Notes under the pieces: model-generated
Seen by the model: only the letters and a program-made list of their open reading frames with translations
Told to the model about the DNA's origin: nothing
Database searches by the model: none
Translations under genes and position numbers: made by a program
In this document: piece by piece, positions 4,360-18,427 of the stretch
How positions within the stretch are numbered: position 1 is the first letter of the stretch
Layout: each line of letters starts with the position of its first letter
DNA from: Thermoanaerobaculia bacterium
GTDB lineage: Bacteria > Acidobacteriota > Thermoanaerobaculia > UBA5066
Length of the DNA stretch: 64,000 nt
Assembly: GCA_035542215.1 (NCBI GenBank)
Contig: DATKLW010000033.1
Location: 15,651 to 79,650 of the forward strand
Direction of reading: 5' to 3'

Positions 4360-4371
4360 CCCGAGGCCCGC

Positions 4372-6018
4372 TCAGCGTCCGAAAAGCCGCGTCCGAAGCG
4401 CTTCGAAAAGGCCGCATCGGCGGAGCACGATCTCGCTCGGGCCCGGAGGCGGCCGAACGAGGATCGTGCCGCCCTCCGTCGTCTCGACGCGGCCCCCGCG
4501 CCCGGCGCTGACGGCGAGGAAGGGGCTCGCGAACCAGTTGACGACGAGAACGGCGTCCGGATCCGAATCGACGGCGAGGCGGATCTCCGGCACGTCCTCG
4601 AGTCCGGAGAGCGCCGCACGGGGGCTCGCCTCCCGGATCACGCAGCCCGCCGGCTCGAAGAGCGGCCGCGGCTCGGGCGGGGGCGCGCCCCGCGGCCGGA
4701 ACGCGTCGCTGTGCCGCGTGGCGGAGAGGCGCGCCGGCGTGAGGCTCGCGGCAATCTCGTCCGCCGCGATGAGCCGGGGCGGCGGCGGCCGCCCGACGCC
4801 GTACCAGACCTGGAAGAGCACGGCGGCGAGCAGCGCGGCGTGAAGTCCGCGCCTCACGGCGGCGCTCGGCGAGCTCGCGGCGAGGAGATCGATCGAGAGG
4901 CACAGGAGGACGATCGAAACCGCCGTCGAAAACGTGAGCAGACGCCACGGAAACTGGACGAACTGCAAGGGTGGCGCGAGGCGGTAGAGCGGCGCCGAGA
5001 CCGGCGACTCGAGGACGGCGTAGAGAGCCGCCGCGCCGAGCGCGAGAAACCACGCGGGGCCCGTTTCGCGGAGGCGGCTCGTCGGGAGGCGGCGGCACAC
5101 GGCGAGCGCGGCCACCGCGGCGCAGCAGACGATCGCGAGGGAGTTGAAGCCGCGCCCGATCTCGACCGAATAGCCGGCCGTGCTCGACGTCCAGCCGCCG
5201 ACGCGGTCGTACAGCATGTCCGCGAACGGCACGAAGTTCCGGAAGACGGCGAACTGCCCCGACCGGAAGACGTCGAGATCCGCGTCCGCGCCGAAGACCC
5301 GGATCCCGGCGAGGAACGGCCCCGCGACGACGGCGACGACGAGCGCGGCCTGGCCGAGCGCGGGAAGCGCCCGCGCCCGCCCCTGGCGGAACGCGAGAGC
5401 GCCCGCGAAGGCGAGGAGGACGAACCCCGACGCGAAAAGAAAGATCACGGAGTGCGCGAAGAAGAGGAGGGCGAGAACGGCGCCGAGCGCCCAGCCGGCC
5501 CGCGAACGCCCCGCGACGACGCCGAGCGCGGCGTCGAAGAGCCACGGGACGAGCATGAACGCCGCGAACTCCGCGAACGCTCCCCGGACGACCCAGTCCG
5601 TGTAGGCGTAGTTGGAGAAGACGAAAAGGAGCGCGCCGCACGTCGCCGGGAACGAAGCGAGCCCCGCGGCGCGGAGGGTCCGGCGCATTCCGAGCGCGCC
5701 GGCGAAGAGAAGGAGCAGGATCGCGGCGCGGACGCCGGCGAGCGTCGAGCCCGTCGCGAGCGCGAGGCCGCCCGCGAGGGTATTGAAGAGCCGGTGGTAG
5801 AAGAACGGGAAGGGCGAGCCATGGCCGTTCTCGGCGAGGGGCGTCCAGAGCGGGAGGAGGCTCCCTTCCGCGAACGCGCGGCGGAAGATTTCGACCCGTT
5901 GAAAGCAGGCGACGCGGTCGTGGTTCTCCGGCCAGCCGGGAAGGACGAACACGGGGGCACAGGCCGCGACGCAAGCGAGGAAAAGCAGGACGAAAGGGCC
6001 CGCGCGGCGGGGAGACAT
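4372..6018 (-). CDS. Polytopic membrane protein, probable GT-C-type glycosyltransferase (PTPS-related/YfhO-like)
   Basis: 548 aa, more than 10 predicted TM helices. N-terminal region LLPLWTPLAENGHGSPFPFFYHRLF resembles PTPS-related membrane glycosyltransferase-like proteins. It is the first of three tandem paralogous membrane genes on the minus strand. Confidence 0.55.
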   Translation of the reverse strand: MSPRRAGPFVLLFLACVAACAPVFVLPGWPENHDRVACFQRVEIFRRAFAEGSLLPLWTPLAENGHGSPFPFFYHRLFNTLAGGLALATGSTLAGVRAAILLLLFAGALGMRRTLRAAGLASFPATCGALLFVFSNYAYTDWVVRGAFAEFAAFMLVPWLFDAALGVVAGRSRAGWALGAVLALLFFAHSVIFLFASGFVLLAFAGALAFRQGRARALPALGQAALVVAVVAGPFLAGIRVFGADADLDVFRSGQFAVFRNFVPFADMLYDRVGGWTSSTAGYSVEIGRGFNSLAIVCCAAVAALAVCRRLPTSRLRETGPAWFLALGAAALYAVLESPVSAPLYRLAPPLQFVQFPWRLLTFSTAVSIVLLCLSIDLLAASSPSAAVRRGLHAALLAAVLFQVWYGVGRPPPPRLIAADEIAASLTPARLSATRHSDAFRPRGAPPPEPRPLFEPAGCVIREASPRAALSGLEDVPEIRLAVDSDPDAVLVVNWFASPFLAVSAGRGGRVETTEGGTILVRPPPGPSEIVLRRCGLFEALRTRLFGR

Positions 6019-6027
6019 CGACGAAGT

Positions 6028-7764
6028 CTAGCGAGACGGCCCGCAGCGGGCCGCGAAGACCGAACCCTCGGGCGTGCCCGGAAAGCCCAGCCTCACGGTA
6101 TACAGGCCCCGCGGCGGACGCGACGTGACGATCCAGTCGAACTCGGCGCACGCGCCCGTGTCCGGCGCCCGCATGGGAAGAAGCTCGAGCGGGCTGAGCG
6201 GCCGGGTTGCATCTACCGGAAACGCGACGAGGAAGGGAGAATCCTCCCGCGCGAGGATGCCCGGGTCGACCGCCACGCGCTGCCGCCCCACCGAGGACGC
6301 GAACGCGCCTGCGGCGGCGGCCCGCTGGCCGAAGCGCGGGGCCGTCGGGCTCAAGAGGCCCCAGCGCAGGAAACGCGTGGTGTCGCAGAGACCAGACGCG
6401 ACCACGACGACGAGAGGCAGGGCCGCTCGCGCGAGAGACGGCGGGGCGCGGAGCGCGAGAGCGTCGAGGCCGGCCGCCGCGAGAGGCAGGGCGAGCGCGA
6501 GCGCGAGGCCCGCGCGGTACCCGTTCGGAGCCTCCAGCGGAGACGACAGGACGCCTCCGGCGAGCGACCCCGCGAGGACCGCGAGGAGGAGGCCCCTCTC
6601 CCGGCTCCAGGCGGCGGCGAGACCGGCAGGAAGAAGCGCCGCGACGAACGCGTTGAACGGCGGCGTGTCCCCCTCGCCGTGGCGCGTGTTCCGGTCCCAG
6701 GCGAAGGAGAGCAGGCCGACGTAGTCCGCGGCGTTCTCCGCGACGCTCCATGCGACCTCCGACGGGCTGCCCCGGAGCCGGATGGCGGCGGCCCGTCCGC
6801 CGAGAGCGTCCGGCCGCCGGACGTACACGAGCGCGAGGAAGAGAGCCGGCAGCGCGAGCCCCGCGGCGAAGGCGCCGAACGCGCGGGCTTGGCGGCGGAG
6901 AAGGAAGGACCCGAACAGGAAGACGGCGAGCGCGCCCACCGCGGGGATCGAACCGACGTACGTGTGGAGCGAGAGGCCCGCGAGGAGTCCGCAGGCGAGA
7001 AGAGGCCCGGCTCTCCCGGAGTCCCGCGCGGCCGCGGCGCGCTCGAGAGAGAGCACGACGAGAAGGACCATCATCTGCTGGTCCCAGCCCCAGCGCGCCT
7101 GGACGAGAAGCGGAAACGCGGTCGCCGCGAAGACACCGGCGATGAGCGCGGCGCGCGGCGGGGCGAGGCGGCGAGTCAGGAGAAAGAGGGCGAGCGGGAT
7201 GAGCGCGCCGGGCAGGGCGGACAGCAGGGCGTAGGCGAGCTGGCGGTCGGGGGCCAGCACGAGAAGCACCCTCGCGACGTCCAGCATCCCGCCGAAGAGG
7301 AGGATGTTCGAGGGGCCGAACGGGGCGGGGGCGAGCGACACGGCCTCCCACGGCCACAGGAAGCGACCGGCGGAGGCCGCATCGTGGAGGGCGTGCACGC
7401 CGTCGGTCCAGGGGGCTCCGGGCAATTCGCGCCAGAACGCGCCGCGGAGGGCGACGGACAGAGCGACCACGAGAATTGCGGGGCCGAAGACACCGGCGCG
7501 GGGAGAGTCGCCGGCTGCGGGCCGCCGGAGCGCGAGGACCGGGGCGGCGAACGCGAGGGCGAGGAAGAGACCGAAGGCGACGAGCGCGAGCAACGTCGCC
7601 GCGGTGACCGGCCAGACGGAGTCGACCGGGAGGAAGTAGCCCGGCGGGTAGCCGAGAAGCCGCTGCCGGAGCCAGGCGGCGCCGGCGGCCGCCGCCGCCG
7701 CGAGCCCCAGGGCCTCGCCATGCCCCCGCGGTCTCACGGACTGCCACGAGAAGCGGCCGGCCAT
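6028..7764 (-). CDS. GT-C family membrane glycosyltransferase (ArnT/PMT_2-like, GT39/GT83)
   Basis: 578 aa, multi-TM N-terminal half with periplasmic loop motifs typical of ArnT/dolichyl-phosphate-mannose mannosyltransferase-like enzymes. Confidence 0.6.
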   Translation of the reverse strand: MAGRFSWQSVRPRGHGEALGLAAAAAAGAAWLRQRLLGYPPGYFLPVDSVWPVTAATLLALVAFGLFLALAFAAPVLALRRPAAGDSPRAGVFGPAILVVALSVALRGAFWRELPGAPWTDGVHALHDAASAGRFLWPWEAVSLAPAPFGPSNILLFGGMLDVARVLLVLAPDRQLAYALLSALPGALIPLALFLLTRRLAPPRAALIAGVFAATAFPLLVQARWGWDQQMMVLLVVLSLERAAAARDSGRAGPLLACGLLAGLSLHTYVGSIPAVGALAVFLFGSFLLRRQARAFGAFAAGLALPALFLALVYVRRPDALGGRAAAIRLRGSPSEVAWSVAENAADYVGLLSFAWDRNTRHGEGDTPPFNAFVAALLPAGLAAAWSRERGLLLAVLAGSLAGGVLSSPLEAPNGYRAGLALALALPLAAAGLDALALRAPPSLARAALPLVVVVASGLCDTTRFLRWGLLSPTAPRFGQRAAAAGAFASSVGRQRVAVDPGILAREDSPFLVAFPVDATRPLSPLELLPMRAPDTGACAEFDWIVTSRPPRGLYTVRLGFPGTPEGSVFAARCGPSR

Positions 7765-7770
7765 TGGAGC

Positions 7771-9369
7771 TCAGAGCGACATCGGCGACCAGAGTCGCCA
7801 CATGTTGCTGCGCAGGGTCGGGGGGCGGGCCGGCCCTGTACGCCGGTACTCGGTGAACGCGTCGGTTCGCGCGACGCGGACGAGACCGGCGCGCGCTTCC
7901 CAGCCGTCAAAGTCCGGGTCGCGCTCGACGAGGACGACGTCGGGCGCGAACCCCTCGAGCGGGATCTCGGCGTCGGAGGGCGCCCCCTCTCTCTTCGTCA
8001 CGAGATAGACTTTTTCGATCCGGCTCCAGCAGAAGTACTTCACGACGTCGCGCCCGTTGCGCGCGACGAGGAGGACGCGCGCGCCGCCGGCGGTCAGGTC
8101 GCGGGTGCGCTCGGCCATCGCGGTCACCGACTTGTGGAAATAATGGGCGGCGACGTCCGACCGGCCGAACGTCACGACCCAAGCCCGCGCCTGAAGCGCG
8201 AGCGAGAGGGCGAAGAGCGCCGCGAGCGGGATCGCGAGCCGGGGCGCGCGAGAGAGAAGCGCGTCGCAGCCGAGCGCGGTGAAGACGAGCCAGGCGGGGA
8301 GGAGGATCAGGAGGCGCGTGAGGCTCGGACCGTAGAGGCCGAGGAGCACGCAGCCCGAGAGCCACGCGACGAAGAGGAACGAGAGCGCCTGGGGCTCTTT
8401 CCCGCGCCGCCACGCGAAAAGGCCGAGGAGCGCGAACGGCCCGGCGATGAGGTCGAACGGATCGAGGCCGCTCGCCGTCAGGGCGACGCCCGTCACGTCG
8501 AAGACGTGACTGGATCCCAGCCACACGCGGTAGCGGTCCGGATAGGCGAACGGCATGAGAAACGTCGCGAGGACGTTTCCGATCTTCTCGAACGGCGTGC
8601 CGCGCGAAACGTAGTAGCCCCGGTCGAGGAGGGCGCCGGGCGCGCGGAGGAGAAGGAGAAGGTTCGGGATCGAGAAGAGCGCGAAGCCGAGGACGACGCG
8701 CCGCGCCTCGCGGCGCAGGGCGGGGCGCGTCCCGACCGTGCGGCGCCAGCGCAGCGCGAAGTGGAGCGCCCAGGCGATCGGAAGGAGGCGGCACGCCGAG
8801 TACGCGTAAACGCCCAGCGCGAAGAGCGCGCCGGCGGCGAACGGACGGTCGGCGACGCCGGTCTCTCTCCGGTCGTCGAGCAGGAAGCATGCGCCGAGAA
8901 GGACGAGCGGAGCGGCGATCGCCCTCAGGCCGACCTCGCCGGAGTGGAAGAGCCAGAGAGAGGACGCGGGAACGAGGAGCGCGATCCCGACGGGGAGCGT
9001 CGGCCGGATACGCCGGAGGAGGGCCGCGACGAGAACGAGCGTGCCGGCGGCCGCGAGGATGCTCGGGACGAGGAAGGACGTCCGCGTCGGGCCGAAGACC
9101 GCGACCGCGGCGCCGGTCAGGTAGAGCCAGAGCGTCTCGGCGGACGGGCCGATCGAGACCGTCAGGACCTCGAAGCGGCGCAGGAGAACGAGCCGGAGCC
9201 CGCGCAGCGCCTCGATGACCGGATCCGCCGCGACGCCGGGAGGGACGCGCCCGGCCGCGAGAGCGAGGAGACCGAGGTAAGCCGCGGCGCCGGATCCGAT
9301 GAGGGCGGCGCTCCGGGCGGAGGTCTTCCGCCCCGGAGCGAGGGGCGCACTCTCCTTCTGCGTCCGCAT
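7771..9369 (-). CDS. GT-C family membrane glycosyltransferase (ArnT/PMT_2-like)
   Basis: 532 aa, multi-TM; shares architecture with the upstream paralogue. C-terminal soluble domain. Confidence 0.6.
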   Translation of the reverse strand: MRTQKESAPLAPGRKTSARSAALIGSGAAAYLGLLALAAGRVPPGVAADPVIEALRGLRLVLLRRFEVLTVSIGPSAETLWLYLTGAAVAVFGPTRTSFLVPSILAAAGTLVLVAALLRRIRPTLPVGIALLVPASSLWLFHSGEVGLRAIAAPLVLLGACFLLDDRRETGVADRPFAAGALFALGVYAYSACRLLPIAWALHFALRWRRTVGTRPALRREARRVVLGFALFSIPNLLLLLRAPGALLDRGYYVSRGTPFEKIGNVLATFLMPFAYPDRYRVWLGSSHVFDVTGVALTASGLDPFDLIAGPFALLGLFAWRRGKEPQALSFLFVAWLSGCVLLGLYGPSLTRLLILLPAWLVFTALGCDALLSRAPRLAIPLAALFALSLALQARAWVVTFGRSDVAAHYFHKSVTAMAERTRDLTAGGARVLLVARNGRDVVKYFCWSRIEKVYLVTKREGAPSDAEIPLEGFAPDVVLVERDPDFDGWEARAGLVRVARTDAFTEYRRTGPARPPTLRSNMWRLWSPMSL

Positions 9370-9536
9370 TTGCCGATTCTAGAAGCGGTCGCGCCGCGAG
9401 CCTCCCGGGTGGTCCGGGCGCGCGAGAAGCGCGTCTTTTGGGCCTCCGGACGCATTCCTCCAGTCTTCGGACGCAATCGGCATGGTTCAAATGAGGGATG
9501 GACGAGCCCCGAGGCAGGCCCGGACACTGACCGTGG

Positions 9537-11174
9537 ATGACTCTCTCGCGCATCCCCTTCCATCGGCGCCTCGGCTTCAAGATCACGGCAACGGCGGCCG
9601 CGGCGATCCTCGTCCCCGTCGCGTTCGTCGCGGCGCTGACGATCCGCGCCCAGCACGAGGAGCTCGTCGCGCGGGCGCAGGGGAGCGCTTCGATCCTCTC
9701 CGAAACCGTGCGCAGCGCGACGCACGACTTCATGCTTCGGAACCAGCGCGAAGATGCGTACCGGATCGTCGAGATCGTCGGTCACGAGAGCCTCCGCAAG
9801 GACAGCTCGATCGAGAGCGTCCGGATCTTCAACAAGCGCGGCTCGACCGTGTACTCGACGGACCGGTCCGAGATCGGGCGGATCGCGGACAAGAGCGCGG
9901 GCGCGTGCGCGCCGTGTCACGGGGGGCCGGGAGCGCCCGTCACGAACCCGGATCCCGCGACGCGCAGCCGCATCACCACGGTCGGGGACCACCGCGTCCT
10001 GTCGTTCGTGACGCCGATCTACAACGAGAAGGACTGCGCGGTGGCGGGCTGCCACGCCTCCCCAAAGGACCAGCGCGTCCTCGGCCTCCTCGACGTCGCG
10101 CTCTCCCTGCGCGACGTCGACGACCGGCGCTCGGCCGCGACGTGGCGCATCGTCGGGTTGTCGCTCGTCGCGCTCGTGCTGCTCACGGCGCTCGTCTCGG
10201 CCATCGTCCGCCTTCTCGTCGTGCGGCCCGTTTCGGACATGCTCGCGGCGACGCGGGACCTCGCGGAAGGCCACACGGCCGCGCCGCTCGCGATCCGCAC
10301 CGAGGACGAGCTCGGACGGCTGGGGCATTCGTTCAACGAGATGAACGCGTCGCTCCGGCGGGCACGCGCCGAGCTGGAAGAGGCGGCGGAGAACCTCGAG
10401 CAACAGGTCGAGGACCGCACGGCCGCCCTTCAGCATGCTCAGGAGGCGCTCGTGCAATCCGAGAAGCTCGCCTCGCTCGGCACGCTGTCGGCGTCGATCG
10501 CGCACGAGATCAACAACCCGCTCGCGGGGGTCCTGACCTTCGCGCGCCTCATGTCGCGCACGCTCGAGGCCGGCGAGGTGAACGAGGACGCCCGCGCCGC
10601 GTGCCTGAAGAACCTCGGCCTCATCCAGCGCGAGACCGAGCGCTGCACGCGGATCGTGCGCAGCCTCCTCGACTTCGCGCGAGCCCGGCCGATCGAGCTC
10701 CTCTCCGTCGACGCCGTCGCGGCTCTCGAGGAGGCGCTCTCTCTCACGCAGCACAAGCTGCAGCTTCAGCAGGTCGTCCTGACCCGGGCGTTCGACGGGC
10801 CGGCCGTCGTGCGCGGCGACTTCGGCCAGCTGCGGCAGGTCTTCGTGAACCTGATCCTGAACGCGTGCGACGCGATGCCGGAGGGCGGGACGCTTGCCGT
10901 GACCTCGAAGAGGGTGGAGGACGGCCAGGCCGTGGAAATCGCGATCGCCGACACGGGCGCGGGCATCGCGCCGGAGCACCTGTCGAGGATCTTCGACCCG
11001 TTCTTCACGACGAAACCGATGGGGACGGGTCTCGGCCTCTCGGTCGTCTACGGCGTCGTGGAGAAGCACGGCGGGTCGATGAAGGTGCAGAGCCGTCGCG
11101 GCGAAGGCACGACGATGACGGTGCGGTTGCCGCTTGCCGGGAAGGCGGCGGCGCCGGCGGGCGCCGCCGTGTGA
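9537..11174 (+). CDS. Sensor histidine kinase (TM1, periplasmic domain with c-type haem motifs, TM2, HAMP, HisKA, HATPase_c)
   Basis: 545 aa. Two TM helices flank a ~155-aa periplasmic domain containing CAPCH (CXXCH) and CAVAGCH (CX4CH). Then HAMP, an H-box SIAHEINNPL and G1/G2 boxes. Confidence 0.85.
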   Translation: MTLSRIPFHRRLGFKITATAAAAILVPVAFVAALTIRAQHEELVARAQGSASILSETVRSATHDFMLRNQREDAYRIVEIVGHESLRKDSSIESVRIFNKRGSTVYSTDRSEIGRIADKSAGACAPCHGGPGAPVTNPDPATRSRITTVGDHRVLSFVTPIYNEKDCAVAGCHASPKDQRVLGLLDVALSLRDVDDRRSAATWRIVGLSLVALVLLTALVSAIVRLLVVRPVSDMLAATRDLAEGHTAAPLAIRTEDELGRLGHSFNEMNASLRRARAELEEAAENLEQQVEDRTAALQHAQEALVQSEKLASLGTLSASIAHEINNPLAGVLTFARLMSRTLEAGEVNEDARAACLKNLGLIQRETERCTRIVRSLLDFARARPIELLSVDAVAALEEALSLTQHKLQLQQVVLTRAFDGPAVVRGDFGQLRQVFVNLILNACDAMPEGGTLAVTSKRVEDGQAVEIAIADTGAGIAPEHLSRIFDPFFTTKPMGTGLGLSVVYGVVEKHGGSMKVQSRRGEGTTMTVRLPLAGKAAAPAGAAV

Positions 11175-11722
11175 GCGAGGTCCTTCTCCTGTGGATCGGG
11201 CGGACGGACTCCGCGCCGGAGATCCTCGAAGGCGTGCGGCGGAGCGTCGCGCGCGAGTTCGACCTCGCGGCCCGCGTCCGGCTCGCCCAGGAGAGGCCCG
11301 TCGCCGCGTTCGACGCGCGGCGCGGCCAGCACTCCTCCACGCGGATCCTCGCCTGGCTGCAGGACCGGCACGACGGGGCGCACCGCATCCTGGGCGTCAC
11401 GGACGCGGACCTCTTCATTCCGGTTCTGACGTTCGTCTTCGGCGAGGCACAGCTCAACGGCCGCGCGGCCGTGGTCTCGACGGCCCGCCTCGGCGACACG
11501 CCCCTGATCCCCGGAGAGGCGGCGCGGATCGCGCTGCGCCTCCAGAAGGAAGCCGTGCACGAGCTCGGTCACACGTTCGGGCTCCTGCACTGCCCCGATT
11601 CGCGCTGTGCGATGGCGCGCTCGCCGAGCCTGCGCCACGTCGACGCGAAGTCCCCCGCCCTTTGCCGCGCCTGCCGCGCCCGCAGCCGCGAACTCTCGGA
11701 AAACGGAGATCCCCATGAGTAA
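11171..11722 (+). CDS. Archaemetzincin-like zinc metalloprotease (peptidase M54 family)
   Basis: GTG start overlaps the kinase stop (GTGTGA). The motif HELGHTFGLLHCPDSRCAMA...CRAC equals HEXXHXXGXXHCX4CXM-X17-CXXC, diagnostic of archaemetzincins. The 3' end overlaps the response-regulator start by 8 nt. Confidence 0.75.
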   Translation: MSEVLLLWIGRTDSAPEILEGVRRSVAREFDLAARVRLAQERPVAAFDARRGQHSSTRILAWLQDRHDGAHRILGVTDADLFIPVLTFVFGEAQLNGRAAVVSTARLGDTPLIPGEAARIALRLQKEAVHELGHTFGLLHCPDSRCAMARSPSLRHVDAKSPALCRACRARSRELSENGDPHE

Positions 11723-13109
11723 GAAAAGCACGCGAATCCTGATCGTCGACGACGAGGAGATCATCCGGGAGTCCCTCTCGGGCTGGCTCGGCAAGGACGG
11801 CTACACGATCGGGACGGCGCCGGACGGCCTTTCCGCGCTCCGGATGATGGAAGAGGGCTCGTGGTCGATCCTCCTCGCGGACCTCAAGATGCCCGGCATC
11901 GACGGGCTCGAGCTCCTCCGGCGCGTCAAGGCGAAGTGGCCGGACACCTCGGTCCTCATCATGACGGCCTTCGCCACGGTCGACACGGCCGTGAACGCGA
12001 TGAAGTCCGGCGCGTTCGACTACGTCGTCAAGCCCTTCGACCCGGAAGAGGTCAGCCTCGTCGTCGAGAAGATCGTCGCGCAGCAGGCCCTCGTCCGCGA
12101 GAACGTGATCCTCCGGAAGGCGCTCAAGAAGGAGTACGTTTTCCACGACTTCGTCACGAAGAGTCCGGCCCTCCTCGCGACGCTCGAGCTCGCGAAGACG
12201 GCCGCCCACAGCCCGTCGACGATCCTCGTCCTTGGGGAGAGCGGCACGGGCAAGGAGGTCCTCGCGCGGGCGATCCACGCCGAGAGTCCGCGCGGCGGCA
12301 AGCCGTTCGTCGCGATGTCGTGCGCGGCGCTCACGGAGACGCTCCTCGAGTCCGAGCTCTTCGGCTACGAGAAGGGAGCCTTCACGGGCGCGAACGGCCG
12401 GCGGGAAGGGAAATTCGAAGCCGCGAGCGGAGGGACGCTGTTCCTGGACGAGATCGGCGACATCAGCGCGAAGCTCCAGCTCGACCTCCTGAGGGTCCTG
12501 GAGGAGCGCCGCGTCACGCGCGTGGGCGGCACGGAGTCGCTGCCCGTCGACGTGCGGATCATCGCGGCGACGAACCGGGACCTGAGACGCGCGGTGGAGG
12601 AAGAGCGTTTCCGGCAGGACCTCTATTACCGGCTGAACGTCATCACGATCACGCTCCTCCCGCTGCGCGAGCGCAAGGAGGACATCCCGCTTCTCGTCGA
12701 GCGCCTGCTCGAGCAGCTCGGCTCCGAGCTCAAGCGCCCCGTCGAAGGCGTCTCGCCCGAAGCGATGGCGATCCTCCTCGCGCACGCGTGGCCCGGCAAC
12801 GTCCGCGAGCTGCGCAATGTCCTCGAGCGTGCGATCGTCGTTTCGGACGCGCCGATCCTCGAGGCCCGGCACCTCGGCCTGAACCTCCAGGAGGGCGTGG
12901 GAGCGAGGCCGATGCCGGAGCATCCGGCGTCCCTCGAGGAGATCGAGCGCCAGTACATCGGGAGCGTCCTGAAACTGAGCGGCGGCAACGTCACGCAGGC
13001 GGCCCGCATCCTCGACATCGACCGGGTGACCCTCTACGCCAAAATTCGCAAGTACGGGCTGAAACGCGCAGAGGGCGGGGAGTTCGAACCCTCAACGCCG
13101 AGCCGATGA
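11715..13109 (+). CDS. Sigma54-dependent response regulator (NtrC family: REC, AAA+ sigma54 activator, HTH)
   Basis: MSKKSTRILIVDDEE...LLADLKMPG receiver; GESGTGKE Walker A; GAFTGA motif; C-terminal Fis-type HTH. Start ATG at 11715 with a GGAGA RBS. Confidence 0.9.
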   Translation: MSKKSTRILIVDDEEIIRESLSGWLGKDGYTIGTAPDGLSALRMMEEGSWSILLADLKMPGIDGLELLRRVKAKWPDTSVLIMTAFATVDTAVNAMKSGAFDYVVKPFDPEEVSLVVEKIVAQQALVRENVILRKALKKEYVFHDFVTKSPALLATLELAKTAAHSPSTILVLGESGTGKEVLARAIHAESPRGGKPFVAMSCAALTETLLESELFGYEKGAFTGANGRREGKFEAASGGTLFLDEIGDISAKLQLDLLRVLEERRVTRVGGTESLPVDVRIIAATNRDLRRAVEEERFRQDLYYRLNVITITLLPLRERKEDIPLLVERLLEQLGSELKRPVEGVSPEAMAILLAHAWPGNVRELRNVLERAIVVSDAPILEARHLGLNLQEGVGARPMPEHPASLEEIERQYIGSVLKLSGGNVTQAARILDIDRVTLYAKIRKYGLKRAEGGEFEPSTPSR

Positions 13110-13137: not shown

Positions 13138-13170
13138 ACGCGCGGACCACCGCGCGTTTTCGCTTTCTGG
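13138..13170 (+). terminator. Rho-independent terminator downstream of response regulator
   Basis: Hairpin AACGCGCGG-ACCA-CCGCGCGTT followed by TTTCGCTTTC. Confidence 0.5.
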
Positions 13171-13225: not shown

Positions 13226-13242
13226 GTGGCCTGGTCCTTGCG
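13226..13242 (+). promoter_or_regulatory. Sigma54 (-24/-12) promoter
   Basis: TGGCCTGGTCCTTGC: GG and GC separated by exactly 10 nt (TGGC-N7-TTGC), matching consensus TGGCAC-N5-TTGC. The predicted TSS is ~3-5 nt before ATG 13257. It lies directly downstream of the sigma54 activator gene. Confidence 0.6.
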
Positions 13243-13256
13243 CTACCAGAAGTGCC

Positions 13257-13508
13257 ATGTTGACCGAAACCACGACCACCTGCCCATGGCTGAAACAAGT
13301 GGTGATGCTCTACTGCGACGCCTGCCCCACCAAGAAGATGGTGCCGCGTGACCAGCTCGTGTCCCAGGGCCCTTGCCTGGCCGGCTCCTTCAAGGAGTGC
13401 GCGATGTACCGCGAGATGGCCCAGAGGCTCGGGGCCGGCGCCGACGACAGGGTTGTGAATACGGAGGCGAGCCGCGAGGCCGCTTCCGGGAGGGAGGTCC
13501 CGTCATGA
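13257..13508 (+). CDS. Small Cys-rich hypothetical protein (83 aa)
   Basis: ORF has 5 Cys (CPW...YCDAC...GPC...EC). It is the first ORF after the sigma54 promoter and would be near-leaderless. No homology recognised. Confidence 0.35.
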   Translation: MLTETTTTCPWLKQVVMLYCDACPTKKMVPRDQLVSQGPCLAGSFKECAMYREMAQRLGAGADDRVVNTEASREAASGREVPS

Positions 13509-13588
13509 TCGCCACCATCCCGCTCGCCCTTCTCGCCGTTCTGACGCTCCTTGCGCTGGCCCATCAGAGCCGGGTCCGTCCGTCCTGA
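13505..13588 (+). CDS. 27-aa hydrophobic single-TM micropeptide
   Basis: Strong SD GGGAGGGAGG 8 nt upstream of ATG; MIATIPLALLAVLTLLALAHQSRVRPS. Sits immediately 5' of the Fe-S subunit gene. Confidence 0.4.
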   Translation: MIATIPLALLAVLTLLALAHQSRVRPS

Positions 13589-13601
13589 GGAGAAGAACGC
13601 A

Positions 13602-14510
13602 ATGACTCTCAACCGCCGCAACCTGTTCAGGATCGCCGGCGCTGCGGGCGCGGCCACGGTCGCGGGCCGTGCGCTTTCGTCGGCGATGACACCGGGCGCC
13701 CCAAAGACCACCGCCAATGCGGTCCTGGTGGACACGACGCGCTGCGTCGGCTGTCGCGCCTGCGAGGCCGCCTGCTCCGAGGCAAACCAGCTCGCCGAGC
13801 CCGAGAAGCCCGGCGACGCCGCCGTGTTCGCGTCGCGCCGCCGGACGGGCCCCACGAGCTTCACGGTCGTGAACAAGTCGACCGAGAAGAGCCCGAATGG
13901 AGAGGACCGCTACGCGAAGATGCAGTGCATGCACTGCGTGTCGCCCGCGTGCGCGTCCGGCTGCGTCGTCGGAGCGCTCGAGAAGACGCCGGCGGGCCCG
14001 GTCGTCTACCACGCGGGCCAGTGCATCGGCTGCCGGTACTGCATGATCGCGTGCCCGTTCTCGGTCCCGAAATACGAATACGCGAAGGCCGCCCCGCTCG
14101 TGAAGAAGTGCACCTTCTGCGCCGAGCGCCAGGGCCAGGGCCTTCCGCCCGCGTGCACGGAGGCCTGCCCTTCGGGCGCGCTCCTGTTCGGCAAGCGGGC
14201 CGACCTCCTCGAGGAAGCGAGGACCCGCATCTACCAGAACCCGACGCGGTACACGCACGAGATCTACGGCGAGGACGAAGCCGGGGGAACGAGCTGGCTC
14301 TACCTCTCGGACGTCCCGTTCACGAGCCTCGCCCTCCCCGGCGAAATCGAGAAGAGGTCGTACCCGGAGCTCGCGGAAGGCGCGCTCTCGGCGGTCCCCC
14401 TCGTCGCGACCCTGTGGCCGCCCCTCCTCATGGGCCTCTACACCTTCAGCAAGCGGCGCCACGACGTCGCGGAAGAAGGAAACGGGCGCAAAGGAGACGG
14501 TCATGAGTAA
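13602..14510 (+). CDS. Tat-exported 4Fe-4S ferredoxin-type electron-transfer subunit (HybA/NrfC/DsrO-like) with C-terminal TM anchor
   Basis: Twin-arginine signal MTLNRRNLFRIAGAAGAATVAG. Four Cys clusters CVGCRACEAAC, CMHCVSPACASGC, CIGCRYCMIACP and CTFCAERQ...CTEACP. C-terminal hydrophobic helix; RBS GAGGAGAAG. Confidence 0.85.
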   Translation: MTLNRRNLFRIAGAAGAATVAGRALSSAMTPGAPKTTANAVLVDTTRCVGCRACEAACSEANQLAEPEKPGDAAVFASRRRTGPTSFTVVNKSTEKSPNGEDRYAKMQCMHCVSPACASGCVVGALEKTPAGPVVYHAGQCIGCRYCMIACPFSVPKYEYAKAAPLVKKCTFCAERQGQGLPPACTEACPSGALLFGKRADLLEEARTRIYQNPTRYTHEIYGEDEAGGTSWLYLSDVPFTSLALPGEIEKRSYPELAEGALSAVPLVATLWPPLLMGLYTFSKRRHDVAEEGNGRKGDGHE

Positions 14511-15747
14511 CGTGATGAGCGACGGCCTGAACCGCCCGGTCCCCTTCCCCGCGTTCGTTCTGGACAAGATCTGCCTCGGAATGCCCGCGAAGACCTACGC
14601 GAAGAGCCTCCTGACGAAGACGAACGCGATCTACGCCGCCATCCTCGCGATCGGCCTCCCCACTCTCGCCTACCGCTACTGGAAGGGAATGGGCGCCGTG
14701 AGCAACCTCTCCCAGACGAACCCGTGGGGCATCTGGGTCGGCATCAACATCATCTGCGGCATCGCGCTCGCGGCCGGCGGCTACACGGTGGCCGCGACCG
14801 TCTACGTCTTCGGCCTCGAGCAGTACCGGCCGATCCTGAGGCCCGCGATCCTGACGGGGTTCCTCGGCTACGTCTGCGCGATCAGCGGCCTCATCGTCGA
14901 GCTCGGCCAGCCGTGGCGGCTTCCCTACCAGCTCTTCCTGACGCCGGGCACGACCGCCGTCATGTTCGAAGTCGGCATGTGCGCGTTCGCCTACCTGATC
15001 GTCCTCGGTCTCGAGATGCTTCCCGCGGGACTCGAGTGGCTCGGACTCGCCCGCGCCCGCCGCATCATGGGAACGCTCACGATCGGGATCGTCGTCCTCG
15101 GCATCACGCTCTCGACGCTCCACCAGGCCTCGCTCGGCGCCTTCTTCCTCATGGTGCCGGGCAAGCTCCACCCGCTCTGGTACTCGCCGTATCTCCACGT
15201 CTTCTTCTTCATCTCCTCGATCTCCGCGGGAATCGGGATGATCATCTTCGAGAGCACGGTCTCGCGCCGCGCGTTCCGCGACGAGCTCGACCCCGAGGCG
15301 CCCGTCGACCTCGACGCGCTGCAGCTCGGCCTCGCCAAGGGCGGCGCGGTCGTCCTCTTCGCGACCTTCTTCATCCGCCTCCAGGGCCTCGTCGTCTCCG
15401 GGCGGTGGGACCTCCTGTTCACGGGCTGGGGCGCCTGGTTCGCGCTCGAGCTCGTCGGCTTCATCCTCTTGCCGTCGCTCCTCTTCGCGTTCGCCGTCCG
15501 CACGCAGAGCGTCACGCTCACGCGCGCGGCCGCCGTCATGGCGGTTCTCGGCGTCGTCCTGAACCGCATCAACGTGTCCCTCATCGCCTACAACTGGAAC
15601 GTCCCCGCCTCGGACCGGTACGTCCCGTCGATGGGCGAGATCGTCCTCACGATCCTGCTCCTCACGTGCGGCGTTCTCGCCTTCCGCTGGATCGTCAACC
15701 GCATGCCCGTCCTTCGCGAGCATCCGGATTGGCGCGGCAGCCACTGA
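14503..15747 (+). CDS. NrfD/PsrC/HybB/DsrP-family polytopic membrane quinone-interacting subunit
   Basis: 414 aa, ~10 TM helices, NrfD-family sequence character. Start overlaps the Fe-S gene stop (ATGAGTAA). Confidence 0.85.
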   Translation: MSNVMSDGLNRPVPFPAFVLDKICLGMPAKTYAKSLLTKTNAIYAAILAIGLPTLAYRYWKGMGAVSNLSQTNPWGIWVGINIICGIALAAGGYTVAATVYVFGLEQYRPILRPAILTGFLGYVCAISGLIVELGQPWRLPYQLFLTPGTTAVMFEVGMCAFAYLIVLGLEMLPAGLEWLGLARARRIMGTLTIGIVVLGITLSTLHQASLGAFFLMVPGKLHPLWYSPYLHVFFFISSISAGIGMIIFESTVSRRAFRDELDPEAPVDLDALQLGLAKGGAVVLFATFFIRLQGLVVSGRWDLLFTGWGAWFALELVGFILLPSLLFAFAVRTQSVTLTRAAAVMAVLGVVLNRINVSLIAYNWNVPASDRYVPSMGEIVLTILLLTCGVLAFRWIVNRMPVLREHPDWRGSH

Positions 15748-15763: not shown

Positions 15764-16429
15764 ATGCACGCGAACGACCTCCTCAGCCCGCACGCAACCA
15801 AGGCCATCGAGTACGTGCTCGCGGTCTCGTATCTCCTGCTCTTCATCCCCTTCTGGCGCTTCGTGAACGGCGCCACCGCCGCGGAGTCCCTCGCGTTCTC
15901 GTGGTTCCAGGTCCCGGCGAACGTCCACCTGCACCGCGGCCACTCCTGGGCGAAGACGTTCGGGGGCGCGGTGGCGGTCGGTCTCGACGACTTCGCGCAC
16001 AAGATGATCGGCCCGCTCGATTCCGTCCAGTTCCCCGCGGTCGGCTCCGCCCTCCGGCAGGGGCAGAAGGCCTTCTCGGTCGTCGCGGACGGCAAGTCCT
16101 TCGACGTCCTCTCACCGGTCGACGGCAACGTCGTCGCGCTGAACGAATTCGTCCGCGCCCATCCGTCCGACGCGGTCCGCGACCCTTACGGCACGGGCTG
16201 GCTTCTCAAGGTCGAGCCCCGCTGGCTCACGGCAAACCTCAAGAACCTCGTCTCCGGCGACGGGGCCCGCCGCTTCCTCGACGCGGCCGCCCAGGTGCTC
16301 GCCGGCCGCATGAGCCCCGAGCTCGGCATCGTCCTCCAGGATGGCGGCACGCCGGTTCACGGAATCGCCCGCGAGATCGACCCCGCGAACTGGGACTCTC
16401 TGGTCCGGACGTCTCTCAAGGGCGAGTGA
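15764..16429 (+). CDS. Membrane-anchored glycine-cleavage H-protein-like (lipoyl-carrier fold) protein, lipoyl-Lys position conserved
   Basis: N-terminal TM helix. Soluble domain aligns with E. coli GcvH: HSW (HEW), AVGLDDFA (VGITEHA), ADGKSFDVLSPVDGNVVALN ([21 protein letters not shown]; K aligned) and DPYGTGWLLKVEP (EPYAGGWIFKIK). Confidence 0.7.
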   Translation: MHANDLLSPHATKAIEYVLAVSYLLLFIPFWRFVNGATAAESLAFSWFQVPANVHLHRGHSWAKTFGGAVAVGLDDFAHKMIGPLDSVQFPAVGSALRQGQKAFSVVADGKSFDVLSPVDGNVVALNEFVRAHPSDAVRDPYGTGWLLKVEPRWLTANLKNLVSGDGARRFLDAAAQVLAGRMSPELGIVLQDGGTPVHGIAREIDPANWDSLVRTSLKGE

Positions 16430-16439
16430 GGAGTCCGCG

Positions 16440-16790
16440 ATGAACACACGCCTCCGCTTCCTCGCGGCGACTTTCCTCCTCTCCCTTTCCGCGACGCTGC
16501 TCGCGGGGGCGCTCCCGAACCTCCCGAAGGACATCGCGTTCCCCCAGGGCGACGGCAGCCCGGGAGTCGTGATCTTCCGGCACGAAGATCACATCGATGC
16601 CTCGCAGCCGGACTGCACGATCTGCCACCCGAAACTCTTCTCCATCGTCAAACGCACCGCCTCTTCGGCCGCCCCCGCCGCGATCCGCCACGCCGAGATG
16701 GAAAAGGGCAAGAGCTGTGGCTCCTGCCACGACGGCAAGACCGCTCACGGGCTCTGGGACGACTGCGGAACGTGCCACAAGGCAAGGTGA
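16440..16790 (+). CDS. Trihaem c-type cytochrome, cytochrome c7 (PpcA)-like
   Basis: Signal peptide plus three CXXCH (CTICH, CGSCH, CGTCH). FRHEDHIDASQPDCTICH parallels PpcA FPHKAHQKAVPDCKKCH. Confidence 0.8.
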   Translation: MNTRLRFLAATFLLSLSATLLAGALPNLPKDIAFPQGDGSPGVVIFRHEDHIDASQPDCTICHPKLFSIVKRTASSAAPAAIRHAEMEKGKSCGSCHDGKTAHGLWDDCGTCHKAR

Positions 16791-16798
16791 GGTGACCC

Positions 16799-17497
16799 AT
16801 GACGCCTCTCGAATTCCTCCAGCTCGCCGGCATCTTCCTCGCGGGCCTCGTCGTACGGCTCCTCGCGTTCCTGCTCGTGCTCGCGGTCTGCACGCTGCCG
16901 ATCATCGCCGTCTGGGCGTTGTGGACCGCGTGGCAGAAGCTCCGTGACCGGCGCATCGGCCTCGTCGACCTCGCCGGGCTCGAGCTCGCCGAGGCGCACC
17001 ATTACGCGCCGGGCCACACGTGGCTCGCGCGCAAGGGCCGCGGCACCGTCCGCGTCGGACTCGACGAGATCGCGGGGCGGCTCCTCCACGCGCCCACGAG
17101 CGTCTCGCTCCCGCGGCCGGGAACCGTCCTCGCCGCCGGCCTCCCCGCCGCGACCGTGAACTGCGGCGGCCGCTCGGCCTCGATCACGGCTCCGGTGTCG
17201 GGCACCGTCGTCGCGATCAACCAGGCGGTCCAGCGCGATCCCTCGATCCTCGAGGACTCGCGCTACCGGAACGGCTGGCTCTTCTCGATGAAGCCCGCGA
17301 CGGCCTCGTTCCTCACGCTTCCGACGGGACCCGCCGCGCGCGCGTGGTTCCGGGACGAGACGGCGCGCTTCTCGCACGCGCTCGAGACCGAGCTCGGCCT
17401 CCTCGCTGCCGACGGCGGAGAGCTCGTCGTCGAGGCGCCCGCTCTCCTCTCCGAGGAGAAGTGGCAGCACCTCGTCGGGGAGTTCCTGAAGGGCTGA
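16799..17497 (+). CDS. Membrane-anchored GcvH-like protein (two N-terminal TM helices), lipoyl-Lys replaced by Gly
   Basis: GHTWLARKGRGTVRVGLDEIAG and DSRYRNGWLFSMKP match the GcvH fold. The position of the lipoyl-Lys aligns to NCGGRSASITAPVSG, with no Lys. Confidence 0.65.
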   Translation: MTPLEFLQLAGIFLAGLVVRLLAFLLVLAVCTLPIIAVWALWTAWQKLRDRRIGLVDLAGLELAEAHHYAPGHTWLARKGRGTVRVGLDEIAGRLLHAPTSVSLPRPGTVLAAGLPAATVNCGGRSASITAPVSGTVVAINQAVQRDPSILEDSRYRNGWLFSMKPATASFLTLPTGPAARAWFRDETARFSHALETELGLLAADGGELVVEAPALLSEEKWQHLVGEFLKG

Positions 17498-17520: not shown

Positions 17521-17553
17521 GCGCGGGGCGGTTCGTCCGCCCCGCGTTTTCGT
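17521..17553. terminator. Bidirectional Rho-independent terminator between convergent genes
   Basis: GCGGGGCGG-TTCG-TCCGCCCCGC hairpin followed by GTTTTCG; A-rich on the opposite strand. Confidence 0.55.
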
Positions 17554-17562
17554 CTCAGAGGG

Positions 17563-18018
17563 TCAGCGCTTGCCGAAGAGCTTGTCGAAAGCGGACCGGG
17601 CGCCGTCGGGCGTGTCCGCGGCTTTCGCGCCGGTCAGGTCCATGCTCACGACGGGCGCATAGAGCGCGCATTCGTTCGCCTTCGACTTTGCGGCGATCGG
17701 CGCCGGGATCGGCTGGCGGCACTGCCAGCGCGCGGCCCCGTCGAAGTGGCGGCACTGGCTGCAGGCGTGGAGGGCGGCGCCGCACTTGCGGCACGCCGAG
17801 CCGATCGCCACCTCGGCGTCGTTCTTTTCGCCGCAGACCTTGCACCGGAAGACCTCGTCGCGGTGGGGGTCGGCCCCGCGGCCGCGGGGAGCGCCCTCCA
17901 GACGAGCCGGGCGGTCGGGAAAGAAGCCGCCGCCCCCGCCGGACGTTCCCGTGCCGCCGGTCCGGGCGCCGTCCTGATAGCCCTTCGAGCGGTACTTGCG
18001 ATCCGACATCTGCGTCAT
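17563..18018 (-). CDS. Hypothetical Cys-rich (double zinc-ribbon-like) protein
   Basis: 151 aa MTQMSDRKYRSKGYQ...CKVCGEK...CRKCG...CSQCRH...C. Only the C-terminal 151 aa of the 408-aa track ORF is plausible. Confidence 0.5.
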   Translation of the reverse strand: MTQMSDRKYRSKGYQDGARTGGTGTSGGGGGFFPDRPARLEGAPRGRGADPHRDEVFRCKVCGEKNDAEVAIGSACRKCGAALHACSQCRHFDGAARWQCRQPIPAPIAAKSKANECALYAPVVSMDLTGAKAADTPDGARSAFDKLFGKR

Positions 18019-18064
18019 TCTACGGTCCGCGGCCGGGGCCGTAGAATGCCGCCCGGGGACTGAC

Positions 18065-18427
18065 ATGAGATTTCTCCTCCGGATCCTCGTGAACGCGGCG
18101 GCCCTGTGGGTCGCGGCGTCGTTCGTGAGCGGCATCCACGCGGGCGGCCCCGGGTCCATCCTCGCGGTCGCCGTCGTCTTCGGCCTCGTGAACGCGTTCG
18201 TCCGTCCCCTGCTGAAACTCCTGAGCTGTCCCGTCATCCTCCTGACGCTCGGCCTCTTCACGCTCGTCATCAACGCCCTCATGCTCATGCTCACGGCGTG
18301 GGTCGGAGCCCAGTTCGGGATCGACTTCAAGGTGGCCGGGTTCTGGCCGGCGGCCTTCCTCGGCGCCTTGATCGTCTCCATCGTCTCGACGGTCCTGTCC
18401 TGGCTCATTCCGGACACGGCCTCCTGA
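18065..18427 (+). CDS. Phage-holin-4_2/DUF360-family small membrane protein
   Basis: MRFLLRILVNAAALWVAASFV...FVRPLLKLLSCPVILLTLGLFTLVINALMLMLTAWV; four TM helices, typical of this family. Confidence 0.6.
   Translation: MRFLLRILVNAAALWVAASFVSGIHAGGPGSILAVAVVFGLVNAFVRPLLKLLSCPVILLTLGLFTLVINALMLMLTAWVGAQFGIDFKVAGFWPAAFLGALIVSIVSTVLSWLIPDTAS

Follow-up and report, generated by a model that had tools for sequence, protein, structure and literature searches.

The archaemetzincins (peptidase family M54) have been known since 2005 and four of their structures have been solved; we know of no physiological substrate for any of them. In the archaeal AmzA structures the cleft is closed, and the enzymes of Methanopyrus kandleri and Archaeoglobus fulgidus were inactive in vitro on all the generic substrates tried, leading their authors to propose that they have a very strict specificity or need an activating partner (PMC3427221). 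AMZ-tk of Thermococcus kodakarensis degrades casein and is the only one of these archaeal enzymes with shown activity (PMC4681839), while the human proteins AMZ1 and AMZ2 have been reported to be aminopeptidases on synthetic substrates, a report treated cautiously in the AmzA structural paper (PMC3427221). Among bacteria, CarG of Myxococcus xanthus has the archaemetzincin fold and no protease activity; it forms a tight complex with CarD, and its gene is translationally coupled (PMC8156234, PMC3427221). The original prediction for the DNA analyzed here, which held that no bacterial amz function is established, overlooked this non-proteolytic partner of CarD. We describe an amz gene, with its product AMZ, that lies between a sensor histidine kinase gene and the gene of a sigma-54-dependent response regulator in a 64-kb stretch of a Thermoanaerobaculia bacterium (contig DATKLW010000033.1), which as a whole is called the window below. 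The three genes belong to a conserved cassette that appears to be undescribed so far, and a search of open-access papers and preprints found no paper on an M54 peptidase in a two-component operon.

The three genes and the junctions between them are as follows.

9537..11174, + strand: sensor histidine kinase, with two transmembrane segments around a periplasmic domain, then HAMP, HisKA and HATPase_c domains (Pfam)
11171..11174, + strand: 4 nucleotides shared by the GTG start of amz and the stop of the kinase gene (GTGTGA), read from the sequence
11171..11722, + strand: amz (archaemetzincin, peptidase M54), 183 amino acids, GTG start, without a signal peptide
11558..11674, + strand: catalytic and zinc-binding motif of AMZ, HELGHTFGLLHC-PDSR-C-A-M-x16-C-RA-C, with three His, the catalytic Glu, the Met-turn and the Cys4 site
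11715..11722, + strand: 8 nucleotides shared by the end of amz (CAT GAG TAA) and the start of the regulator gene (ATG AGT AA), read from the sequence
11715..13109, + strand: NtrC-class response regulator, with REC, sigma-54 AAA+, AAA lid and Fis-type helix-turn-helix domains

Relatives of AMZ number in the thousands in the protein database, the closest being annotated as Thermoanaerobaculia or Acidobacteriota. A scan with an alignment of 41 homologues covered one genome for each GTDB species, and we kept the best 80 loci; these species representatives, from about ten phyla, and four metagenome contigs make up the 84 related loci compared here. Most are metagenome-assembled genomes, taxon names are used as annotated, and the nine proteins of the window were located in them by tblastn, on which the gene calls there rest. 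The amz gene immediately adjoins the sigma-54 regulator gene in 84 of the 84 loci. Two gene orders occur: kinase-amz-regulator in 40 loci, and regulator-amz in 43, of which 38 are clearly kinase-regulator-amz. The cassette junctions are overlaps of 4, 8 or 38 nucleotides or very short gaps, which strongly supports the earlier proposal of a translationally coupled kinase-protease-regulator unit. The same proposal had called this arrangement non-standard; instead, this amz clade shows it without exception, in one or the other of two gene orders. Within the Acidobacteriota the carriers are Thermoanaerobaculia, Vicinamibacterales, Terriglobia, Bryobacterales and Holophagales, and elsewhere they include Anaeromyxobacter (with the complete A. 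oryzae genome), Methylomirabilis, Bacteroidota, Ignavibacteria, Chlorobiaceae, Gemmatimonadota, Eisenbacteria, Fermentibacteria, WOR-3, Syntrophales and Syntrophorhabdus. Three long contigs (86-65% identity) have the same nine-gene layout as the window.

The three proteins of the cassette have also diverged together. Distances among AMZ, regulator and kinase co-vary in a mirror-tree comparison (r = 0.84-0.89), and the nearest neighbor of a locus shares its gene order in 66 of 66 loci, for all three proteins, so that the two orders represent two old lineages of the whole cassette. Locus L051, a Bacteroidota contig, carries two complete cassettes in tandem (2894..9994), one kinase-regulator-amz and one kinase-amz-regulator. 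Each has an amz of its own, and the AMZ sequences of the two have clearly diverged. When the open reading frames of 85 neighborhoods were clustered, the conserved families were the kinase, the regulator, AMZ, NrfD, Fer4, GcvH-like proteins and s83 (a small Cys-rich protein described below) only. Many antisense "families" in the same clustering were rejected as shadow reading frames of high-GC DNA. Candidate Rosetta-stone fusions of HATPase_c or AAA-lid domains with M54 (P0061, P0129, P0244 and P0171) were likewise discarded, being frameshifted kinases or regulators in low-coverage long-read assemblies; two of these artefact sites are P0061/L004 at 4730..6948 and P0171/L085.

We also performed the converse test, in which metagenome contigs were scanned with an alignment of the kinase periplasmic domain alone (14 sequences, pattern TP[IL]YNE), a scan that mostly samples the kinase-amz-regulator type. 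Among the loci with this sensor and enough downstream DNA, about 56 of 61 (~92%) contained amz: 44 had the complete kinase-amz-regulator order, 11 had kinase-amz ended by the contig edge and one had kinase-regulator-amz. The five without amz comprise two related contigs in which the kinase adjoins the regulator, two internal deletions and one different architecture. The periplasmic domain itself (kinase residues 45-215; window 9669..10181) bears the haem-c motifs CxxCH and Cx4CH. It is kept in 65 homologues, where C80, C83, H84, C123, C128 and H129 are invariant or nearly so, and no Pfam or NCBIfam model matches it. Its motifs read "AEAC..CHA" and "NEP.C....CHAHP....VLGVLD", and relatives are encoded by 464 of the 600 pattern-matching metagenome stretches listed. 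From its sequence, we regard it as a common, unnamed, putative di-haem sensor. The remaining domains place the pair in the NtrC class, as a kinase with HisKA and HATPase_c and a regulator with REC, sigma-54 AAA+ and HTH_8, in one operon. For the regulator, Pfam gave Sigma54_activat at 3.5e-70 together with Response_reg and HTH_8, and in NCBIfam it matched AtoC/ZraR-like models best.

More distant amz proteins (37-41% identity) were examined locus by locus, and among them the sensor domain was found to change.

L166: [FeFe]-hydrogenase-like Fe-S sensor domain; kinase-amz-regulator, then an s83 homologue and HydABC-type hydrogenase genes, with HydE/G/F maturases nearby
L038 and L039: Cache-HAMP sensor; kinase-regulator-amz, with a NuoF-like gene nearby
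L171: Cache-type sensor; kinase-amz-regulator
L172: PAS sensor; kinase-regulator-amz, with two GcvH-like genes nearby

Thus four sensor types carry the trio (di-haem, Cache, PAS and [FeFe]-hydrogenase-like) and the input domain alone changes: the kinase transmitter (~40% identity) and the regulator (~50%) stay homologous through the swaps, with values of 41% and 52% in L166. The regulated gene sets vary by cassette type as well, from HmcBC-like to HydABC-like to NuoF-like, and five loci (L038, L040, L041, L056 and L063) have no structural genes within 6 kb. In L064, regulator and amz overlap by 4 nucleotides and the upstream neighbor is a cytochrome b gene, not a kinase gene. Regardless of gene order, sensor type and regulon, amz adjoins the regulator, which is the property by which we propose to define the cassette.

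AMZ is a genuine archaemetzincin by every sequence and fold criterion applied, and an ordinary member of its family. It matches Pfam PF07998 (Peptidase_M54) with 67.7 bits (cut-off 24.4, E=1.8e-18) and barely passes the NCBIfam model NF033823 "archmetzin" with 147.2 bits against a cut-off of 145, where its clade relatives score 150-160 bits. Its motif, HELGH-x2-G-x2-HC-x4-CxM-x16-CxxC, contains the residues H130, E131, H134, G137, H140, C141, C146, M148, C165 and C168. The metzincin zinc site HExxHxxGxxH with its catalytic Glu is complete and invariant in the 41-sequence alignment, and the Met-turn and the four Cys (C141, C146, C165 and C168) that form the second, structural zinc site are complete too. 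All 85 clade sequences retain the catalytic Glu, the three zinc-binding His, the Met and the four Cys; 77 of these 85 have the full motif and the other eight deviate at the Gly only. In the orthologous loci amz is intact, neither absent nor frameshifted, with its catalytic residues kept. The alignment with the M. kandleri AmzA crystal sequence (PDB 2x7m, E=1.6e-28) runs ungapped across the motif with identical spacing. The archaemetzincin signature reported in the original prediction therefore stands except for its Met-to-Cys spacer, given there as X17: the spacer is 16 residues, as in AmzA, and x16 likewise in CarG (PMC8156234). The X17 repeats a published consensus string and is not a real mismatch.

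An AlphaFold2 model of AMZ, built on 31 homologues, had a predicted local distance difference test score (pLDDT) of 86.3 and a predicted template modeling score (pTM) of 0.87. Foldseek superposed it on 2x7m with a template modeling score of 0.84 and a root mean square deviation of 2.3 A, and the next matches were the remaining three archaemetzincin structures, 3zvs, 4axq and 3lmc, followed by ADAMs and adamalysins. Against the CarG model NF033824, which describes a non-proteolytic archaemetzincin-like protein, AMZ scored 106.5 bits with an equivalog cut-off of 250; by this score, by its catalytic Glu and by its partner gene, AMZ is not a member of the CarG equivalog. A descent of CarG from this amz clade was considered and rejected, as the CarG model scores amz proteins from outside two-component operons at 116-125 bits and clade members at 87-111.

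The window is GC-rich (from a 70% GC genome) and full of shadow open reading frames. The dN/dS ratio (nonsynonymous to synonymous substitutions) of amz, measured against 85%-identical relatives, is ~0.2, which indicates purifying selection on a real gene, as opposed to a chance open reading frame. The kinase frame ends in GCC GTG TGA by the sequence and the list of open reading frames. The amz GTG codon occupies 11171-11173 and its TAA stop 11720-11722, and the regulator ATG begins at 11715, so that both overlaps described earlier, of 4 and 8 nucleotides, can be read in the sequence. The open reading frame is intact as predicted; its length of 184 counts the stop codon, and the protein has 183 residues. 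Homologues have an ATG at the position of the GTG and the same 4-nucleotide overlap with the kinase stop, which supports the assigned start; the overlap recurs in L001, L003, L005, L007-L010, L033, L034, L061, L083 and L171. No signal peptide could be read in the N-terminal sequence. The overlap with the regulator is 8 or 38 nucleotides in relatives, the longer version adding a 10-residue tail (HEQEEHxxPDRR) to AMZ. In the window the amz stop is made by the Ser2 codon of the regulator (AGT, giving CAT GAG TAA), and most relatives read through into the tail, so a synonymous change in one of the overlapping genes truncates the other. The tail looks dispensable.

Directly downstream of the regulator lies a second operon, with the following features.

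13140..13165, + strand: intrinsic-terminator-like hairpin with a T run, closing the kinase-amz-regulator operon
13227..13241, + strand: sigma-54-type -24/-12 element TGGCCTGGTCCTTGC, ending 16 nucleotides before the ATG of the next operon
13257..13508, + strand: s83, small Cys-rich protein, first gene of the sigma-54 operon, with the motif CPxLxEVxMxxCxAxPxKKxxPxD
13551..14510, + strand: periplasmic 4Fe-4S protein with a twin-arginine translocation (TAT) signal, HmcB/HybA-like (NF045715, 353 bits)
14503..15747, + strand: NrfD-family membrane subunit, HmcC/HybB-like (NF045714, 477 bits)
15764..16429, + strand: membrane-anchored GcvH-like protein 1 (Pfam GCV_H)
16341..16790, + strand: triheme cytochrome c7, as the listed open reading frame
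16799..17497, + strand: membrane-anchored GcvH-like protein 2
17521..17547, + strand: terminator-like hairpin, closing the regulated operon

We read the locus as a regulatory operon with its sigma-54-dependent target operon behind it. When both strands of the 64 kb were scanned, TGGC-N7-TTGC occurred once, at the expected place (13227..13241), and the strict consensus TGGCAC-N5-TTGCW was absent from the window; about 20 related loci have the same element 29-73 nucleotides upstream of their homologous gene. The s83 family, for which the motif can be written in longer form as M-x-CP-x-L-x-EV-x-M-x-[FY]-C-x-A-x-P-x-KK-x-x-P-x-D, has no Pfam or NCBIfam match. It directly follows the regulator in 30 kinase-amz-regulator loci, where it always comes first after the sigma-54 promoter, and in the hydrogenase-type L166 (7004..7351), and it is missing from all 43 regulator-amz loci. 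As listed, the cytochrome c7 frame overlaps the preceding GcvH-like gene by 89 nucleotides; since the orthologues have 114-116 residues, its true start is probably near the ATG at ~16440 (MNTRLRF..., signal-peptide-like). In both GcvH-like copies of the window the column of the lipoyl-Lys of Escherichia coli GcvH holds Gly, followed by Lys or Arg, which makes canonical lipoylation doubtful. The literature search returned nothing on an arrangement of NrfD with glycine cleavage proteins and sigma-54 in open-access papers and preprints.

Several further features accompany these operons. GcvH-like domains, membrane-anchored or fused, stand beside the cassette in all four sensor types, for example in L039 (6533..8347), L172 (6002..7473) and L166 (9700..10528, fused to a HydA-like protein). 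A Phage_holin_4_2-family membrane protein is encoded just after the operon in the window (17996..18427) and just before the kinase in two 65%-identical relatives (L003, 3942..4304; L004, 4304..4666), making it a second small gene that travels with the locus. Divergent from the kinase, on the - strand at 4372..9369, are three consecutive genes for large membrane proteins of ~530-580 residues each, the middle one with a weak PMT_2 glycosyltransferase match and the outer two without a Pfam match. In L051 (2851) and L077 (2943) a near-consensus TGGCAC-N5-TTGC lies 43-54 nucleotides upstream of the kinase gene, which suggests that in some kinase-regulator-amz loci the regulatory operon, amz included, is itself sigma-54-dependent and autoregulated.

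Our main conclusion, to which we assign a probability of about 0.8, is that AMZ is a functional partner of the two-component cassette. That it acts as a cytoplasmic protease which binds and cleaves the regulator or the kinase is a narrower proposal drawn from the sequences, on which we would place slightly less than even odds. AMZ would then be a cytoplasmic, predicted catalytically competent third component of a sigma-54 cassette, next to the kinase transmitter and the NtrC-type regulator. It would be made from the same transcript as these two, by coupled translation and in comparably low amounts, and would bind and cleave one of them. Cleavage would tune or end the activation of the sigma-54 promoter in front of the redox operon that encodes s83, the HmcB-like and HmcC-like proteins, the GcvH-like proteins and cytochrome c7. 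Of the two candidate targets the regulator appears slightly more likely than the kinase, because its gene is the only one that adjoins amz in all informative loci. AMZ probably needs catalysis to function: the Glu is never missing from this clade, whereas it has been lost in CarG, the one bacterial homologue known to act non-catalytically. The occluded cleft of AmzA would be in keeping with a dedicated partner. The periplasmic haem domain, which the original prediction had listed as another possible target, is an unlikely one: AMZ has no signal peptide, and the cassette persists with Cache, PAS and cytoplasmic hydrogenase-like sensors, all of which lack a haem domain.

Several observations weigh against this reading or limit its reach. 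The 80 genome loci are the best matches to the window AMZ, so that the 100% adjacency describes one clade. Two other amz genes of similar distance (~40% identity) occur in unrelated contexts, next to RNA cyclase (RTC) or NUDIX genes and away from any two-component system (L168 and L169); the two-component association therefore marks clades within M54 and not the whole family. A few lineages (L096 and L099) keep the same kinase and regulator without amz, which is consequently not indispensable. The apparent kinase-AMZ and regulator-AMZ fusion proteins are frameshift artefacts and provide no Rosetta-stone link. Co-variation fails to separate the regulator from the kinase as the partner of AMZ (partial correlations 0.36 and 0.40), and since GcvH-like genes turn up close to the cassette whatever the sensor type, the target could also lie outside the signaling pair.

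The alternative that survives best is that AMZ works in the manner of CarG, as a stoichiometric, non-DNA-binding zinc protein that modulates the sigma-54 activator or the kinase without cleaving it, be it as an anti-activator, a co-activator or an assembly factor. Overlapping genes favor equimolar synthesis, as would be apt for a binding partner; a protein modulator is encoded alongside many sigma-54 activators (PspA for PspF and NifL for NifA); and both the CarG-CarD complex and the inactivity of the two AmzA enzymes would agree with such a role. CarG, however, has lost the catalytic Glu (HQxxH), whereas all 85 sequences of this clade, from whichever phylum, retain HExxH together with the third His and the Met-turn; without catalysis such a pattern is hard to explain. 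Moreover, the window AMZ falls far below the cut-off of the CarG model, and CarG is no nearer to this clade than to amz proteins outside two-component operons. We consider this alternative unlikely, although it has to be kept in view.

A second alternative places the substrate of AMZ in the regulated operon, with AMZ as a maturation or processing enzyme for a GcvH-like protein or s83 that is merely co-inherited with the regulators. GcvH-like genes are indeed found near the cassette with every sensor type (di-haem, Cache in L039, PAS in L172 and hydrogenase-like in L166) and in 38 of the 50 loci with full flanks, and s83 follows the regulator in the 30 loci given above and in L166. However, 12 of the 50 lack a GcvH-like gene within 6 kb, s83 does not occur with the regulator-amz order, and the regulated gene sets differ among cassette types. 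In addition, amz is never within the structural operon but always between, or right after, the kinase and regulator genes, and in the window a terminator and a separate sigma-54 promoter cut it off from the structural genes. This explanation strikes us as rather improbable. A fortuitous position, with amz a general housekeeping peptidase and the synteny due to shared ancestry only, can practically be dismissed. In its favor, archaemetzincins are widespread single-domain proteins in archaea without any sigma-54, and some bacterial amz genes of ~40% identity do sit beside unrelated genes such as RTC and NUDIX. Against it, the adjacency has outlasted a change of gene order, a range of four or more sensor types and a variety of regulons. 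It also spans ~10 phyla with protein identities of 37-55%, a distance at which ordinary synteny is long gone; each of the duplicated cassettes of L051 keeps its own amz; and the converse test gave ~92%.

Returning to AMZ as a protease of the signaling pair, one may speculate further that the archaemetzincins of this clade are signal-gated regulatory proteases, which dock on and clip the sigma-54 regulator or the kinase transmitter and are possibly redox-controlled through the Cys4-zinc site. We put this forward tentatively, as a possibility with the odds against it. Redox control through the Cys4-zinc site was raised as a possibility for archaemetzincins in the AmzA structural paper (PMC3427221). 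Under such a scheme a periplasmic or metabolic signal, sensed by the kinase, and a cytoplasmic signal, sensed by the protease, would be integrated on one transcription activator. If true, it would provide the first physiological substrate class for an active archaemetzincin, and a new, phylum-spanning proteolytic third component that controls hydrogen- and quinone-linked redox modules.

Through this clade, permanently tied to a kinase/regulator pair, an orphan protease family acquires specific partner candidates for the first time, namely the regulator, the kinase transmitter and the GcvH-like proteins, and the culturable carriers in Anaeromyxobacter make the question of the archaemetzincin substrate experimentally accessible. 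A metalloprotease that is conserved and co-translated would extend the known accessory proteins of two-component signaling by a new type. The cassette occurs in phyla of soils and sediments that are dominant in metagenomes (Acidobacteriota, Bacteroidota, Gemmatimonadota and Myxococcota). The genes under its control code for HmcBC/HybAB-like quinone modules, cytochrome c7 and bifurcating-type hydrogenases and are important in anaerobic energy metabolism.

Compared with the archaeal enzymes AmzA (M. kandleri 2x7m; A. fulgidus 3zvs/4axq) and AMZ-tk, the window AMZ has the same family, fold, HExxHxxGxxHC-x4-CxM-x16-CxxC motif and Cys4 site, and it is likewise a cytoplasmic, single-domain protein of the same size. 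The archaeal proteins, in contrast, are encoded by stand-alone genes without a known partner or substrate, whereas the window amz is fixed in a bacterial two-component operon, a sigma-54 arrangement that is impossible in archaeal genomes without sigma-54. With CarG it shares a bacterial amz fold with two zinc sites and a gene coupled to that of a transcription factor, where CarG controls transcription within a protein complex (PMC8156234). It differs in keeping the Glu of HELGH, whereas CarG has HQxxH, shows no protease activity and is restricted to myxobacteria. Their partners differ as well: CarD is an HMGA-type factor that binds RNA polymerase and acts at promoters of extracytoplasmic function (ECF) sigma factors, whereas the neighbors of the window AMZ are a histidine kinase and a sigma-54 activator. 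Human AMZ1 and AMZ2 have the M54 core in common with AMZ and differ in their ~25% identity to the archaeal core, their extra domains and the lack of any link to signaling operons.

The closest counterparts in function would be the accessory proteins of two-component and sigma-54 systems, such as PII with NtrB, PspA with PspF and NifL with NifA, where a small co-encoded protein modulates signaling, as is proposed here for AMZ. To our knowledge there is no metalloprotease and no metzincin fold among these. Nor do we know of a dedicated protease gene that is a conserved member of a two-component operon, and our searches of open-access papers and preprints brought up none. By analogy, AMZ may work as a mix of the two, with an archaemetzincin fold that comes from a coupled gene and binds a transcription factor, as in CarG, and the role of an accessory protein of a sigma-54 two-component system.

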